A stretch of 43,156 bases of DNA from IMG/VR virus record IMGVR_UViG_2802429223_000002; one strand, written 5' to 3'. The translations under genes were made by a program, and so were the position numbers. A model generated the notes under the pieces. It was not told where the DNA came from. It worked only from the letters and a program-made list of their open reading frames with translations, and did no database searches. This stretch comes from a virus (taxonomy: Duplodnaviria; Heunggongvirae; Uroviricota; Caudoviricetes). Below are positions 3,517 through 41,787 of this stretch, piece after piece; positions within the stretch are counted from its first letter, which is position 1, and the number at the start of each line of letters is the position of its first letter.

Positions 3517-4101
3517 TTACACGGTGTCTGGTTCTTCTGGCCACTCAATATCAGGTGCAGTTGATGTATCAACACGGTTCAGCAACACCCGATACTTCTT
3601 CCAGGCTTCCAGCAACGAGGTTTCTTCCTCCGTTGCAATTTCCAGATCTGCAGCATCCTGAAGCGGCGCAATATGCTCACTGGCTACCTGCATCAGGTTG
3701 TTTTTTGTTTCTTCCGCCTCCCGGATCCGGAACAGTTTTTCTGCTTCCGTATCCTTCACCCAGGCTGTGCCGTTCCACTTCTGAAACTCCCCTTCCGGCG
3801 ATAACCAGGTAACATTTTCCGGTAACGGACCGAGTTCAGAAATAAATAACGCGTCGCCGGAAGCCACGTCATAAACCGTTTTACCCCGATGATCTTCAAC
3901 GAGATGCCACGATGACTCATCACTGTTGAAAACAGCCACGAAGCCAGCCGGAATATCTGGCGGTGCAATATCGGTACTGTTTGCAGGCAGACCTGTATGA
4001 GGTGGAATATATGCGTCACCTTCACCAATAAATTCATTAGTTCCGGCCAGCAGATTATAAATTTTTATGGTCCGTGGTTGTTCACTCATTCTGAATGCCA
4101 T
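3517..4101 (-). CDS. tfa: tail fiber assembly protein Tfa
   Basis: 194 aa, near-identical along its length to lambda Tfa as I recall it ([44 protein letters not shown]...). Confidence 0.95.
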
Positions 4102-34831: not shown

Positions 34832-35170
34832 CTATTTCCCTGAATTTACGACGAAACTGTTCGAGCGGGCTGAAGCACTCATGCTCATAGCCTTCACGGA
34901 GGTAGATAACCCGTTGTGTTTCCGGCTCCCAACGAATGACTCTGACGGGCACTCCGTAGTGATCTTTGAACCAGCGGTTAACTTGTCGCAAAGGACTGTC
35001 TCCTTCTGCCGGTTGAAATCACCCACAGCCCACTCTGCAAAGCTGTGGGTTACAATTTCCCTGTCACCTGGTACATTTACTGCATAGCAATACTCCACCT
35101 TCGCTTTTCCACCTGGTACAGGAAGTGCAATCAGTTGCGAGCGACGGTAGTGTGTTGTTAAACTGTTCAT
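34832..35170 (-). CDS. hypothetical protein
   Basis: 112 aa; ATG overlaps upstream gene stop (ATGA), GGAG SD; preferred over the antisense ORF 34815-35087. Confidence 0.45.
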
Positions 35171-35757
35171 GCGTTAGTTTCTCCACAACCAGAAGCAATC
35201 GACGCCACGACGCCCGGAGCTGCACACTCGCGGGCGTCATTACTTTCTGAAATGCAAAAAATTTTGTAGACAAGTGCTGCATGCTCCTGCAGTTTCGAAA
35301 TTGAGAGATACAGCTCGTCGTTAATTGCTGTCTTCTCATGCGGTTCCACCACACCGTCTTCGATTGCCGAACGAATCTGTTTGGAATAACTGCCAATCTG
35401 TTCAATGACTTCCAGCAGGCGCTGGTTAATATCGGCGTTATCCACATCCTCGACGTCAGGAAGAGACACAAAGACGCCATTTGCAGACTGCGCCACAGCG
35501 TCAGCAATGAAGTGAGTGCCACCAGCACGTTGTAAAATCATCGCCCATCCCAGCGGGAAAATTTGATCGCCATCGGCACGAAGGCGGTTAAATAATGCGT
35601 TCTCTGTTACATCCAGCCAGTCAGCTGCTTCAGCGTAACCCCCCGGCAACGCTGCGATAGTTTTTCTGACAGCTTTCACGTACCACTTAGGCTGTTTTTC
35701 TACTTTCCAGTGATGCTTACCCACGGCTATCTCCTTAAAACTGTGGTTACTTTTCAT
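35167..35757 (-). CDS. phage early regulatory protein, possibly CII-like (CP76-type)
   Basis: About 196 aa from ATG 35757; position directly downstream of the cro-like gene; family assignment uncertain. Confidence 0.35.
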
Positions 35758-35995
35758 CTGATGAATCTTTAATCTTTTGAAAAATATCTGGACGTAATTT
35801 TTCTTTTGATATGCCAGTGGTCTTTTCAATGAATATCGAGAGCTTTGCAGGGGGACGCTTTTCTCTGTTCAACCAGTTCCAGACATGTTGTTGCTTTACT
35901 AAATGACCGCTGCTGGCTGTGAGCTTCCGAGCCAATTCTGATTGACCACCAGCCAGAGCGATTGCCTCCGATAAGGCTAATTGCTCAGGTGTCAT
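35747..35995 (-). CDS. Cro-like HTH regulator
   Basis: 82 aa with HTH (SEAIALAGGQSELARKLTASSGHLVKQQHVWNW); divergent from cI across an operator-rich 135-bp spacer; AGGAG SD. Confidence 0.6.
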   Translation of the reverse strand: MTPEQLALSEAIALAGGQSELARKLTASSGHLVKQQHVWNWLNREKRPPAKLSIFIEKTTGISKEKLRPDIFQKIKDSSDEK

Positions 35996-36130
35996 AGCTT
36001 TCTCCTTTTTAGGTAGTTAAGTTGTTACAAGTTGCAAGAATACAACATTAACAACTTTTATCACAACTTTTAGGTGTTGGAAAGCTAAAACATAAAGTTG
36101 TAACCTCATCAAAAAAGAGAGGGATATGTT
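35996..36130. promoter_or_regulatory. OR-like operator/promoter region between cro-like and cI-like genes
   Basis: Repeated half-sites AAGTTGT (36019, 36030, 36104) and ACAACTT (36052, 36065); 9-bp palindrome TTGTTACAA at 36022-36030; tandem ACAACTTTTA at 36051 and 36064. Confidence 0.6.
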
Positions 36131-36817
36131 GTGAAAACACTGGCAGAACGATTAAAGATAGGTAGAGAGAAAGCTGGCATGAGCCAAGCTCAACTAGCTG
36201 AAAAAATTGGACTTTCACAACAATCTGTAGCCAAAATAGAGAATGGCGAAACTCTACAACCGCGCAAAATTAAAGAAATTGCAAAAGTTTTAGGTGTATC
36301 ACAAAAGTGGTTACAACTTGGTATTGAAGACAACGCATCCATACCTGATCTTGTTGTAAAAGAAGCAGAAAGCACCGCATTAGACCCCGATATTTTCGTA
36401 AACATTCCTGTTTTAGATGTCGAGTTATCGGCAGGTAACGGATGTCTGGCTGAAATAGTTGAATCAGCTATTGACTGGTTTCCGTTAAGAAGAGCAGATT
36501 TGAGAAAATCTGGCGTATGTGCATCTAATGCCAAGATCGTAAAAATATGGGGGAACAGTTTATTACCAGTTCTCAATAATGGAGATCTTGTTGCCGTTGA
36601 TATTTCTCAAACCGTTCCTATTCGTGATGGCGATCTTTATGCCGTACGAGATGGTGTATTGCTAAGGGTTAAAATACTTATCAACTTACCTGACGGTGGC
36701 TTGATTCTTAGAAGCTTCAACAAAGATGAGTACCCAGATGAAATACTCACCTTTGAAGATAGACGAGCCAGAATTCATGTTATAGGTAGGGTATTCTGGT
36801 CATCGCGAACTTGGTAA
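36131..36817 (+). CDS. CI-like prophage repressor (HTH_XRE N-terminus, S24 LexA-like peptidase C-terminus)
   Basis: GTG start with AGAGAGGG SD; HTH (MSQAQLAEKIGLSQQSVAKIENGE) and C-terminal S24-like autocleavage domain. Confidence 0.85.
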   Translation: MKTLAERLKIGREKAGMSQAQLAEKIGLSQQSVAKIENGETLQPRKIKEIAKVLGVSQKWLQLGIEDNASIPDLVVKEAESTALDPDIFVNIPVLDVELSAGNGCLAEIVESAIDWFPLRRADLRKSGVCASNAKIVKIWGNSLLPVLNNGDLVAVDISQTVPIRDGDLYAVRDGVLLRVKILINLPDGGLILRSFNKDEYPDEILTFEDRRARIHVIGRVFWSSRTW

Positions 36818-37690
36818 TGCATCGAAAAGCATTTCTTCAGAAATAATTTTAAGTTTTGCACCATTATCATCCCTATAAGATATAGCTTTTTCGATCTTCC
36901 TTCCGTGACTTGAGAATTTCCAATCACGGGAGGAAAGCGTCCCAATTACTAAAAAATCCAACTTTTGAGTAATTCCACTACTGATGTTCCCACCAGCATT
37001 TTTAATCAAATTTTCAACTACGGCTCTCTTTCCTGCAACAAAAGTGCCTGTAAGACAATAGGTTTTACCCTCTAACTCTATCGAAGCCCCTACATCAATA
37101 GGCAGCCTGGTCGCCAAACCATCCACCACCCCACTTTCCAAGTCACATCCTGTGAAGTCTACTAATGCCTTATGTAGAGTTAAACTCTCATCTTCAGTAA
37201 TAACCCCATCTTTAAGAATTTCCTTTACAAGTGCATAAAGTTTTTTTCCTGGGTAGTTGTTCTTCAAAGCTCCATTTTGCTCAAGCCACCAATTAAGATA
37301 TCTTATTTCTTCTTGAGTTAAGTTCCGATCAGCAATTAATCCTTTACATAGTCCATTAAGTAAATGGACATCTACATCCTTGGAGTAAAAATCAATTTCA
37401 GGGATATCAAGAATTTCCCTCTGTATTTGGAGAAGGCTATTTTTAAGGTCATCACGTTCTTCTGATGTGATTATTCCATCCGCAAGAATATCCGACACCC
37501 GTGCTGATAGACTTTTTATAACTCCATTATTGATAATCTGCTTTGCTTCAAGTACCCATGTATCTAAGTAAAGAACCTCCTCTTCACGGACAACTCCATC
37601 TGCAATGATTCCATCAATGATGCTAATCAAGTTAGCAAATAACTTGTCCCGGTTCTGTGTGTAATTAAAAGCGTAAAGCGCGTCTTCCAT
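36800..37690 (-). CDS. tandem-repeat protein with C-terminal BRCT-like domain (rex-slot cargo gene)
   Basis: 296 aa from ATG 37690 (AGGAGG SD); four ~40-aa repeats (IADGVVREEEVLYL / LADGIITSEERDDL / IADRNLTQEEIRYL / LKDGVITEDESLTL) then GKTYCLTGTFVAGKRAVVENLIKNAGGNISSGITQKLDFLVIG, which resembles NAD-ligase BRCT domains; AT-rich. Confidence 0.6.
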   Translation of the reverse strand: MEDALYAFNYTQNRDKLFANLISIIDGIIADGVVREEEVLYLDTWVLEAKQIINNGVIKSLSARVSDILADGIITSEERDDLKNSLLQIQREILDIPEIDFYSKDVDVHLLNGLCKGLIADRNLTQEEIRYLNWWLEQNGALKNNYPGKKLYALVKEILKDGVITEDESLTLHKALVDFTGCDLESGVVDGLATRLPIDVGASIELEGKTYCLTGTFVAGKRAVVENLIKNAGGNISSGITQKLDFLVIGTLSSRDWKFSSHGRKIEKAISYRDDNGAKLKIISEEMLFDALPSSR

Positions 37691-37744
37691 ACAACCTCCT
37701 TTTTTTGATAATCCTTGCACTCCTTGGCTACTCGTTCAAACCAC

Positions 37745-37800
37745 ATAAAGTTGTTGACAACATTCAAAACCACAACTAAATTACAACTTAAAGGTGTTAA
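37745..37800 (+). promoter_or_regulatory. OL/pL-like operator-promoter: -35 TTGACA inside 11-bp palindrome TGTTGACAACA, -10 TAAATT
   Basis: Palindrome 37752-37762; -35 37754-37759; 17-nt spacer; -10 37777-37782; operator half-sites AAGTTGT / ACAACTT shared with the OR region. Confidence 0.55.
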
Positions 37801-37898
37801 AACAACGAACAGGCAGGACGCCCACGAAGTAGCCGCCTAGGGCATATGAAGTCCAGGATGATTCGTTAGCAACAAAAAAGCGCCCTACAGGACGCTTA

Positions 37899-37910
37899 GC
37901 TCTTTAACAA
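37899..37910 (+). promoter_or_regulatory. boxA-like antitermination element (GCTCTTTAACAA)
   Basis: 12-nt match to the rrn-type boxA core, about 110 nt downstream of the pL-like promoter and 45 nt upstream of the first early-left gene. Confidence 0.45.
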
Positions 37911-37955
37911 TCTGGTCCCCATCAACAAGTAACTGATAACTTGAGGAGGTGTGAA

Positions 37956-38162
37956 ATGCACAAAACAGAACCAAAAATCGTCGCACCCGGATACACAAAT
38001 GAGGAAATTTACGAGTGGATGGCAAAGAAGCTGGCAGCTATAAACCAGCTTCGTGAAGTGCTGTCTTATCGACAGGAAACAATAGACTCCTTAAAAAAAC
38101 TGGATCAGGAAATCACGGTTTTATCACAGGATGTTACTTTAGATATTGTGCAGACAAATTAG
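37956..38162 (+). CDS. hypothetical small protein, first gene of early-left operon
   Basis: 68 aa from ATG 37956 with GAGGAGG SD 5 nt upstream; not Arg-rich, so not recognisably N-like. Confidence 0.5.
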   Translation: MHKTEPKIVAPGYTNEEIYEWMAKKLAAINQLREVLSYRQETIDSLKKLDQEITVLSQDVTLDIVQTN

Positions 38163-38568
38163 GATCCCATTCATTTTCGTCAAAATCATCAAAGTGATGA
38201 ATTTGTGATCTCCAGTCTCGATAATCTAAAAATTTCTGGGCGGTTACGCTTATTTTATCAAGCGTGAGTTCATCCTGAATTGAAAGAAGAAGTTCATCAA
38301 ATTTCATCTCATTAATCTGTTTTGGCATCCAGTGATGCTTCATCAGAATAAGGTGAACCAGAGCTTTTTTCCCATTCAACTGATTATAGGGAGTGCCGAA
38401 TTTCTTCCGGTGCTCATGTAAGACAAGGTCCAGAAGAGTAAGTAATGTTGCCCTTGATTCAACTTTGCTTATTTCGACTGATGACACTACCCCACTGATT
38501 TCAATGCCCCGATACTTTCCAACATTTTCACAGTGGGATTTGTACAGCGTATAGATATTACCGGACAT
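38134..38568 (-). CDS. hypothetical protein, antisense to the early-left operon (moron candidate)
   Basis: 144 aa, AAGGA SD before ATG 38568; AT-rich; own upstream region carries tandem direct repeats. Confidence 0.5.
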   Translation of the reverse strand: MSGNIYTLYKSHCENVGKYRGIEISGVVSSVEISKVESRATLLTLLDLVLHEHRKKFGTPYNQLNGKKALVHLILMKHHWMPKQINEMKFDELLLSIQDELTLDKISVTAQKFLDYRDWRSQIHHFDDFDENEWDPNLSAQYLK

Positions 38569-38584
38569 TTCTTTTCCTTTTGCG

Positions 38585-38635
38585 TTGTTGGGGATAACCA
38601 GATTAACCGAATCCTTGTTGTTGGGGAATAACCAG
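38585..38635. repeat. two direct repeats TTGTTGGGGA(A)TAACCAG, 33 bp apart
   Basis: Copies at 38585-38601 and 38618-38635, 20-70 nt upstream of the minus-strand gene start at 38568. Confidence 0.8.
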
Positions 38636-40307: not shown

Positions 40308-40657
40308 TGGAGCCATACAGCCTCACACTCGATGAGGCCTGTCATTTTCTCAAGATATCCAGACCGACTGCCATTAACTGGATACGCACAGGGCGTCTTC
40401 AGGCAACACGCAAAGATCCCACTAAGAATAAATCTCCTTACCTCACTACACGACAAGCCTGCATTGCGGCTCTTCAGTCTCCGCTGCATACTGTCCAGGT
40501 GAGCGCGGGTGATGGCATAACAGAGGAAAGAAAATGTCACTCTTCCGCAGAGGTGAAATATGGTACGCCAGTTTCACATTGCCGAACGGTAAAAGATTTA
40601 AACAGTCTCTTGGAACAAAGGACAAAAGGCAGGCGACAGAACTCCATGACAAGCTAA
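40307..40657 (+). CDS. xis: excisionase-like HTH protein (AlpA/Xis family)
   Basis: N-terminal [26 protein letters not shown]; TAATG overlap with upstream gene; ORF runs 124 nt into the int reading frame. Confidence 0.55.
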
Positions 40658-41697
40658 AGGCTGAAGCATGGCGGGTCAGCAAACTTGGTGAAATACCTGA
40701 TATAACATTCGAGGAAGCGTGTGTCAGGTGGCTTGAAGAGAAAGCACATAAAAAATCACTGGACGATGACAAAAGCCGGATCGGATTCTGGCTTCAACAT
40801 TTCGCAGGAATGCAACTAAGAGACATTACTGAATCAAAAATTTATTCAGCAATGCAGAAAATGACGAACCGGCGTCATGAGGAAAACTGGAAACTCAGGG
40901 CAGAAGCATGCAGAAAAAAAGGGAAACCTGTTCCAGAATACACGCCAAAACCAGCGTCCGTTGCAACGAAGGCTACGCATCTTTCATTTATAAAGGCCCT
41001 ACTAAGAGCCGCAGAGCGTGAATGGAAAATGCTGGATAAGGCACCAATTATTAAAGTGCCTCAACCAAAGAATAAACGGATCCGCTGGCTGGAGCCCCAT
41101 GAAGCACAAAGGCTGATTGATGAATGTCCGGAGCCATTAAAGTCTGTTGTTGAATTTGCACTGGCAACAGGCTTAAGACGCTCGAACATCATCAACCTTG
41201 AATGGCAACAAATAGATATGCAGCGCCGGGTGGCATGGATAAACCCGGAAGAGAGTAAATCAAACCGCGCAATTGGCGTTGCGCTGAATGATACTGCATG
41301 TCGCGTATTGAAAAAACAAATCGGGAATCATCACCGTTGGGTATTTGTGTACAAGGAAAGCTGTACCAAACCAGACGGAACGAAAGCGCCAACAGTAAGG
41401 AAGATGCGGTATGACGCAAACACAGCCTGGAAAGCGGCGCTGAGACGGGCTGGTATTGATGATTTCAGATTTCACGACTTGAGACACACCTGGGCAAGTT
41501 GGCTGGTTCAAGCCGGAGTCCCGTTGTCAGTGTTACAGGAAATGGGAGGCTGGGAGTCTATCGAAATGGTTCGTCGATATGCTCACCTTGCACCTAATCA
41601 CCTTACCGAACACGCACGGCAAATAGACTCGATCCTGAACCCATCGGTCCCAAATTTGTCCCAGTCAAAAAATAAGGAAGGTACTAATGATGTGTAA
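40534..41697 (+). CDS. int: tyrosine integrase (P4-type, tRNA-targeting)
   Basis: [15 protein letters not shown]-terminus typical of P4-like integrases; C-terminal catalytic region [15 protein letters not shown]...VRRYAHL; ends 15 nt from the tRNA 3' end. Confidence 0.9.
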
Positions 41698-41711: not shown

Positions 41712-41787
41712 TGGTGCCGATAATAGGAGTCGAACCTACGACCTTCGCATTACGAATGCGCTGCTCTACCAACTGAGCTATATCGGC
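41712..41787 (-). tRNA. thrW: tRNA-Thr (anticodon CGU)
   Basis: Reverse complement reads GCCGATATAGCTCAGTTGGTAGAGCAGCGCATTCGTAATGCGAAGGTCGTAGGTTCGACTCCTATTATCGGCACCA: cloverleaf with CGT anticodon and 3' CCA; matches E. coli thrW as recalled. Confidence 0.95.

Follow-up and report, generated by a model that had tools for sequence, protein, structure and literature searches.

What does a temperate phage keep between its repressor gene and its leftward operator-promoter region? The question is raised by a gene in IMG/VR record IMGVR_UViG_2802429223_000002, a stretch of 43,156 nucleotides (nt) of Caudoviricetes DNA that was analysed at its full length and is called the window in the following. 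It carries a lambdoid prophage of the SfIV/SfV type in which the order is cro and cII-like genes, right operator (OR), cI, a gene for a BRCT-domain protein, left operator and leftward promoter (OL/pL). The neighbourhood of the repressor gene is where temperate phages store functions for the lysogenic state, and it has been the place of first discovery for many defence systems. The BRCT gene is annotated already (RefSeq WP_000389078.1, named 'BRCT domain-containing protein') and has no reported function; it is classed here as a repressor-adjacent prophage accessory or immunity gene. Our tentative answer is that its product, made in the lysogen, has no catalytic activity and serves superinfection exclusion or defence as a sensor or adaptor for DNA ends and nicks.

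The gene, the neighbouring repressor gene and the parts of the BRCT protein are located as follows:

36800-37690, minus strand: coding sequence of the BRCT protein, 296 codons (296 amino acids, aa) with the start ATG at 37688-37690, from the list of open reading frames (ORFs) and its translation
37695-37700, minus strand: Shine-Dalgarno sequence AGGAGG, 4 nt 5' of the ATG of the BRCT gene
36131-36817, plus strand: cI-like repressor, 228 aa, an XRE-family regulator in RefSeq
36821-37075, minus strand: BRCT domain (residues 206-290), Pfam PF00533, 29.0 bits against a gathering threshold of 21.3, E 1.3e-6
37397-37669, minus strand: helical module 1 (residues 8-98), a pair of helix-loop-helix units whose ADG-h-h-x-x-E-E cores lie at D31 and D71
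37133-37384, minus strand: helical module 2 (residues 103-186), which duplicates module 1 and is the best-conserved part of the N-terminal half

The BRCT gene and cI are convergent and their 3' ends share the 18 nt from 36800 to 36817. Coordinates, strand, overlap and the AGGAGG had been given in a preliminary description of this DNA and are all borne out by the ORF list and our own reading of the sequence. The same holds for the AT-richness of the gene, which has a G+C content of 38.2% compared with 50.2% in the whole window; this property is common to the immunity region, a low-GC tract of about 35800-38600 that takes in both the BRCT gene and cI (39.9%). The AGGAGG is kept in nine aligned homologous loci, and homologues are found down to E 5e-188, so that the gene is no chance ORF. 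Orthologues of the window's cI carry the domains HTH_3 and Peptidase_S24.

The C-terminal part of the protein had been described as a BRCT fold close to that of NAD-dependent ligases. This holds: the Pfam match lies above the gathering threshold, PF00533 also matches 134 of 149 diverse relatives, the segment follows the beta-alpha-beta-beta-alpha-beta-alpha order of the BRCT fold, and LigA and RFC1 are the nearest named relatives. By sequence the closest solved BRCT domains are those of RFC1, Rad4/TopBP1 and LigA. The matches in NCBIfam and PHROG concern LigA and an epsilon-like exonuclease, in each case the BRCT end, and lie far under the full-length cut-offs. Since these matches are limited to the BRCT region, the names 'NAD-dependent DNA ligase' and 'DNA polymerase III epsilon' were both rejected: LigA profiles reach 20-28 bits against cut-offs of 369-1051, and the epsilon-like profile (PRK06195) is matched at positions 217-303 of 309 with 30 bits against a cut-off of 373 and without the exonuclease domain. 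No catalytic family among the Pfam, PADLOC, PHROG and NCBIfam profiles matches the 296-aa protein.

The BRCT domain shows the sequence features of the subclass of RFC1 and LigA that binds 5'-phosphates, with a T-G after strand 1, an arginine eight residues on in helix 1 and a lysine at the start of helix 2. In the alignment, T214-G215 and R222 stand opposite the V-I-T-G...R of RFC1 (p140), and K265-I-E-K-A (K-x-x-K-A) parallels the S-K-S-D-K-A of RFC1. Kobayashi et al. (2006, 2010) reportedly found that BRCT domains of the RFC1 subclass bind 5'-phosphorylated DNA ends through these residues. The T-G, the arginine at +8 and the lysine are each at least 90% conserved in the 149 diverse representatives. 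Unlike RFC1 and LigA, the window protein has no ligase or clamp-loader catalytic core, and it carries a family-specific insertion, S-R-D-W-x-F-S-S-H-G-R-K-I-E, of which about eight residues (S-R-D-W-x-F-S-S) lie ahead of helix 2.

The N-terminal half consists of eight helices, four of them (10-28, 36-50, 56-69 and 76-94) in module 1, with acidic repeat cores at D31, D71, D121 and D161. Comparison of the two halves of this region (residues 8-98 with 103-186) gave an hhalign probability of 99.4% and an E value of 9e-22 and reveals an A-B-A-B duplication, in which each module is built from two more distantly related helix-ADG-h-h-x-x-E-E-helix units. The four tandem repeats of the preliminary description are thus real, yet they are not equal units: profile comparison resolves them into two duplicated two-hairpin modules. 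The conserved residues of module 2 are G113, G117, D121, E128, D161 and E168.

A TerB-like nature of the repeats, which had been suggested as a check, found no significant match for the query: Pfam TerB (PF05099) does not match it at E<=1, hhalign against a neighbouring TerB-domain protein gave E 0.26, SHOCT_2 matched with E 0.14 over 16 residues, DUF1707 (SHOCT-like) occurred in just two of 149 relatives, and fold searches with a dedicated N-terminal model returned nothing specific. TerB and SHOCT were therefore rejected as the identity of the repeats. At the level of the family there are weak matches to TerB in 21 of the 149 diverse relatives (best 9.5e-5) and to DUF533 in nine, and members of this TerB-like clan resemble the window protein in their paired helix-A-D-G-x-h-x-x-x-E-helix hairpins; a relation to TerB/DUF533 thus finds faint support and may serve as a lead, not as a classification. 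The ter operon of IncHI2 plasmids confers phage inhibition. A related prophage, on a contig with the label Pseudomonas lundensis, has just upstream of its BRCT gene a divergent gene (L096:4272-4697, minus strand) whose 141-aa product matches Pfam TerB with E 7e-7. A second candidate relative was the YmfL/CII-like regulator of the window prophage (35170-35757, minus strand), which has one D-G-V-V-x-x-x-E hairpin motif like those of the BRCT-protein repeats (NCBIfam YmfL E 1.5e-4; hhalign E 0.002). This likeness covers 26 residues, the CII of phage K139 shows no likeness to the repeats, and homology to the regulator was rejected.

What such a combination of modules may be used for is best seen from relatives in which it is joined to other proteins. 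Residues 119-251 of the window protein, that is module 2, the linker and the first half of the BRCT domain, match positions 239-377 of the 411 positions of the PADLOC family PDC-S48 (E 2.3e-7), and no other PADLOC family matches at E<=1. The PDC families are defence candidates drawn from genes embedded in loci for BREX, DISARM and type I restriction-modification (RM) systems. The earlier statement that the protein is no named exclusion or defence protein therefore stands, the sole match being partial and to a family that is itself just a candidate. Both share the C-terminal helical module plus BRCT; the window protein differs from PDC-S48 by the lack of the DEDDh exonuclease (there is no RNase_T/DEDDh match), by its second helical module and by its place in a prophage immunity region instead of a BREX, DISARM or RM locus. 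Three relatives (P0184, P0219 and P0259) carry a DEDDh exonuclease fused N-terminally to the module-plus-BRCT cassette and match PDC-S48 over nearly the whole length of that family's profile; in locus L114 the DEDDh exonuclease has a gene of its own, which shares 7 nt with the start of the BRCT gene. The 2042-aa protein P0236 combines a DUF4011 superfamily 1 (SF1) helicase and an MTES_1575 nuclease (PDC-S37/Hhe-like) with the cassette at its C-terminus, and a standalone BRCT gene lies directly upstream of such a giant helicase-nuclease in L115 and L133. Sulfurimonas phage SNW-1 encodes a short form of the BRCT protein with an SNase gene 2 nt downstream. Fusion and adjacency to three different DNases argue that the cassette targets or regulates DNA-degrading enzymes, and fusions and neighbourhoods together lend a role in defence or exclusion indirect support only.

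Other arrangements are more varied. In P0159 and P0207 the cassette is followed by a helix-hairpin-helix (HhH) and a second BRCT domain. Further neighbours of BRCT genes are Lamassu LmuB, HerA and a KAP NTPase (PDC-S20). Two loci (L116:72-5807 and L117:485-4445) have the BRCT gene and a downstream gene for a 339-aa protein in common and differ upstream, where one holds an LmuB cluster (Lamassu-type) and the other a HerA-type system; the BRCT gene thus borders a defence hotspot there. One homologue belongs to a small integrase/resolvase islet of Vibrio parahaemolyticus. In about 30 genomes of marine gammaproteobacteria of the SAR86/Pseudohongiella type (L121-L169), a full-length homologue stands in conserved chromosomal synteny that includes no phage genes; the flanking ORFs encode proteins of about 486 and 114 aa on one side and of 149 or 282 aa on the other and include ABA4-like and Band_7 proteins. 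RdgC, RecX and a Fapy glycosylase occur as scattered single neighbours.

The second part of our answer concerns expression in the lysogen, for which the region upstream of the BRCT gene is relevant:

37754-37782, plus strand: pL-like promoter TTGACA-17-TAAATT, 10 of 12 matches in a promoter scan, divergent from the BRCT gene
37743-37798, no strand assigned: OL-like operator repeats that flank or overlap pL (D1 37780-37798, D9 37757-37770, D11 37743-37754)
37711-37739, minus strand: putative weak promoter of the BRCT gene, with a -35 element TTGAAC at 37734-37739, a 17-nt spacer and an extended -10 element TGC-AAGGAT at 37711-37719, from manual reading
37878-37897, minus strand: hairpin like that of an intrinsic terminator, an 8-pair stem with five G-C pairs and a T-run, tail TTTTGTTGCT

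The OL-like repeats, 12-19 nt long, recur in OR, the cro-cI intergenic region 36019-36105. Promoter and shared repeats confirm that the gene sits in the immunity region between cI and OL/pL, as the preliminary description had it, and that it is divergent from a pL-like promoter on the opposite strand. A weak promoter for the BRCT gene itself, TTGAAC-17-TGcAAGGAT, is suggested by manual reading and by conservation: in nine loci, with proteins 68-100% identical, its T-T-T-G-A and T-G-n-A-A-n-n-A-T are invariant, the pattern TTGA-n-n, 17 nt, T-G-n-A-A-G-G-A-T is kept ahead of the Shine-Dalgarno sequence, and the same loci keep both pL hexamers and the operator blocks. The operator copy 37743-37754 abuts the -35 element of this putative promoter, and its centre would lie at about -43 if transcription starts near 37704. 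An operator at about -43 is the geometry of OR2 at the lambda promoter PRM. From this position we infer that repressor bound to OL permits or even stimulates expression of the BRCT gene in lysogens, which would parallel the homologues in the cI operons of P2-like relatives. Expression in the lysogen is likewise suggested by operons of the K139 type together with the conserved putative promoter. The predicted terminator insulates the BRCT gene from an upstream minus-strand gene of the ECs1072 family.

The mechanism that we tentatively favour would proceed as follows. The gene would be transcribed in the lysogen from the weak promoter that abuts the OL operator, allowed or stimulated by OL-bound repressor. 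On superinfection the BRCT protein would bind termini or nicks of incoming or replicating foreign DNA, its BRCT domain of the RFC1/LigA subclass gripping a 5'-phosphorylated terminus via T214-G215, R222 and K265; the terminus could be a nick, a recessed 5' end or a cohesive end. The helical modules would be the output side, which in relatives appears to be coupled to an exonuclease, a helicase-nuclease or an SNase. The window protein, which lacks a fused effector, might either hide ends from ligase and the replication machinery or recruit a host nuclease. RexA and RexB of lambda offer the obvious comparison, as they share the place in the immunity region between cI and OL/pL and as P2-like relatives of the BRCT gene are co-transcribed with cI. 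The location beside cI is that of a Rex-type module; the window gene differs from rexA and rexB in encoding a single soluble protein and in being convergent to cI and outside the cI operon.

How firmly the gene is tied to the immunity region follows from its relatives. The family comprises 1591 representative clusters at E<1e-10 and 2854 at E<=1e-3, and the window protein matches phrog_3989, which has no assigned function, over its full length (E 4e-128); relatives are named just 'BRCT domain-containing protein' or, wrongly, 'NAD-dependent DNA ligase'. That homologues elsewhere might also stand next to phage repressors had been put forward as a check, and they do. In all 80 close IMG/VR loci (proteins 68-100% identical) cI is convergent and mostly overlapping, and its divergence parallels that of the BRCT protein. 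Of 48 further viral loci, at least 36 carry a cI no more than three genes away, recognised with a limited set of seed sequences. Among 5426 complete Escherichia coli genomes, 48 carry the cI allele and 47 (about 1%) the BRCT gene, always together, and in many of them the shared block stops just past OL/pL, which assigns the BRCT gene to the immunity module. SfIV has the same neighbouring left-operon genes and nothing between cI and pL; the gene is therefore accessory and dispensable for this phage type. Of the earlier suggestion of a slot for exclusion or defence cargo, the position inside the immunity region was right, and the looseness implied by cargo was not, as the gene keeps strictly to one cI lineage and diverges along with it.

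In two viral contigs (L042:2237-3121 and L043:5001-5885) the BRCT frame is cut to 241 aa, similarity runs on to the normal end and cI is intact; the cut frame is probably a pseudogene. An IS3 element in E. coli PS1Thumoskin9 (L178:2452-3614) was considered as a disruption of the BRCT gene and is irrelevant: it sits in the first gene of the pL operon, just past the immunity module, and leaves the BRCT gene intact.

A related arrangement is found in P2-like prophages. In K139/Kappa of Vibrio cholerae and in Aeromonas and Aliivibrio prophages, cI, the BRCT gene, a variable gene and the integrase gene (int) follow each other on one strand, in K139 as cI, orf2, glo and int; in the GenBank record of K139 this stretch is labelled the lysogenic operon, and Glo is annotated as taking part in exclusion. 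Orf2, which belongs to phrog_3989, is 32% identical to the window protein over 95% of the query (E 2e-38). It resembles the latter in full-length architecture and in its place beside the repressor and differs in being co-directional with cI, whereas the BRCT gene of the window is convergent; no reported function of Orf2 was found in the literature. K139 has a repressor of the 186 type (Phage_CI_repr plus Phage_CI_C) and not one of the S24 type. The variable gene between the BRCT gene and int encodes Glo (145 aa), a K+ channel or proteins of 232, 286, 301, 306, 415 or 452 aa, and this position appears to be the true cargo hotspot of P2-like prophages. A gene for a Kv-type K+ channel with the selectivity filter TVGYGD, an S4-like arginine repeat and a Pfam Ion_trans match adjoins the BRCT gene in two independent lineages (L173:6852-7607, plus strand; L181; L118:6877-7587; L131:1006-1722; L133:5218-5934), for example in a P2-like prophage of Aliivibrio logei with the order cI, BRCT gene, K+ channel gene, int. 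A K+ channel after the BRCT gene loosely recalls the channel formed by lambda RexB.

These neighbours allow the tentatively favoured reading to be extended in a direction that we regard as doubtful, namely that module-plus-BRCT is the conserved sensor half of a modular, Rex-like prophage immunity. This half would detect termini or replication intermediates of phage DNA and then switch on an effector that can be exchanged. In cellular and some phage loci the effector would be the exonuclease, helicase-nuclease or SNase that is fused or encoded alongside, in P2-like prophages the variable next gene (Glo in K139, the Kv-type K+ channel in Aliivibrio) and, for the lambdoid version of E. coli, a host protein.

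Several points weigh against a sensor of DNA ends that acts in exclusion or defence. The assignment of 5'-phosphate binding to the window's BRCT domain is a prediction from the work on RFC1 and from the alignment. The window protein has no effector domain and the window contains no partner gene, and a protein that binds every 5'-phosphate nick could harm lagging-strand ligation in the host. The putative promoter is weak, the consensus promoter scanner found none on the minus strand, and a functional study of any member of the family was not found in the literature. The BRCT gene is not a freely swapped hotspot cargo, as it co-diverges with cI, and in P2-like prophages cI and the BRCT gene are constant while the gene before int varies (L179-L192 and L248; K139 is L002). 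Finally, the conserved chromosomal synteny in marine gammaproteobacteria suggests a cellular role in DNA metabolism for at least that branch.

Some of these points lead to the main rival view, which is possible, if rather unlikely: the gene could be an accessory of the lysis-lysogeny switch, whose BRCT domain would sense nicks or 5' gap junctions and tune induction or lysogen stability, either by modulating RecA loading at gaps or through contacts of the helical hairpins with a phage regulator. The tight linkage to cI in unrelated temperate lineages (80/80 lambdoid loci and at least 36/48 further viral loci) is what one would expect of such an accessory, as is the strict co-occurrence with one E. 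coli cI allele (48 versus 47 genomes); physical overlap with cI, however, suffices to explain linkage, and homologues without a nearby repressor exist in the V. parahaemolyticus islet, in the defence-type neighbourhoods and in the chromosomal synteny group. That the BRCT gene stays beside cI while the following gene varies also fits a role in the switch, yet the same switch works without it in close relatives, SfIV among them. The 26-residue motif common to one repeat and the YmfL/CII-like regulator also speaks for such a role, but it is short and has no counterpart in the CII of K139. A preprint on Roseobacter prophages remarks in passing that modules encoding cI and BRCT proteins replace quorum-sensing modules at the regulatory locus, and its authors speculate about DNA-damage sensing (PMC13345283). 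The repressor of K139 is of the 186 type and not an S24 self-cleaving one, so a mechanism specific for RecA and S24 cannot be general, and a coupling of this kind to cI is weakened accordingly.

A cellular origin of the gene offers another explanation, which we consider improbable. The protein would then be an accessory of DNA repair or replication that is carried as a lysogenic-conversion gene, a scaffold that brings ligase, exonucleases or the clamp to nicks and gaps and aids damage tolerance of the lysogen. The conserved synteny in the roughly 30 genomes of marine gammaproteobacteria points to a housekeeping-type role of this sort, and the BRCT domain is of the LigA/RFC1 class. Furthermore, the HhH and second-BRCT fusions P0159 and P0207 resemble the C-terminus of LigA, and DnaQ-like exonucleases with a BRCT domain occur in normal bacterial DNA metabolism (NCBIfam PRK06195). 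The copies in Enterobacterales, Vibrionaceae and Aeromonas, however, are essentially confined to prophage immunity modules, and only 47 of the 5426 complete E. coli genomes carry the gene. While RdgC, RecX and the Fapy glycosylase as scattered single neighbours would agree with a function in repair, several of the non-phage neighbourhoods are of the defence type and not of the repair type.

Highly improbable, in our view, is an anti-defence decoy, a captured nuclease-free sensor half of a PDC-S48/PDC-S37-type protein that competes for the DNA ligand or poisons an oligomer and thereby protects phage DNA from such systems or from end-dependent nucleases: the gene is indeed phage-borne, it encodes no effector domain and its homology is confined to the non-catalytic part of PDC-S48 and the C-terminal cassette of the PDC-S37/Hhe-like giant, but its place in lysogenic operons and immunity regions implies expression in the lysogen and not early in infection, and the standalone forms directly beside nuclease genes in cellular loci (L114, L115 and L133) point to a partner, not an antagonist.

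BRCT domains are a hallmark module of the eukaryotic DNA-damage response. The present family is large and uncharacterised and has members in such classic phages as K139/Kappa of V. cholerae. In it a BRCT domain is combined with an unclassified helical module in duplicate; from the links to nucleases, to a helicase-nuclease and to defence islands one would predict that DNA-degrading effectors are what the cassette targets or regulates. Should the protein turn out to detect DNA ends or nicks for exclusion, BRCT domains would have to be counted among the sensors of bacterial immunity; should it tune induction, a new input to the lysis-lysogeny switch would have come to light. Either role could be tested by simple genetics. 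The doubtful modular, Rex-like version, if true, would provide the first BRCT-based nucleic-acid sensor in bacterial antiviral immunity and a function for a gene that has been in the immunity operon of K139 since the 1990s.

Three observations on the remainder of the window may be added. The minus-strand gene from which the predicted terminator separates the BRCT gene (38134-38568) is a second AT-rich gene set against the pL operon; it encodes an ECs1072-family phage-associated protein of 144 aa for which Pfam gave no match, and with its own strong terminator it looks like another moron. The prophage is integrated beside tRNA-Thr(CGT) (41712-41787, minus strand), which lies directly past the integrase gene (40534-41697, plus strand) and is likely the attachment site and the end of the prophage. 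In the tail-fibre region, Rfam family IS009 matches 3560-3758 (minus strand) with 225.9 bits against a gathering threshold of 117, within the minus-strand ORF 3517-4101.

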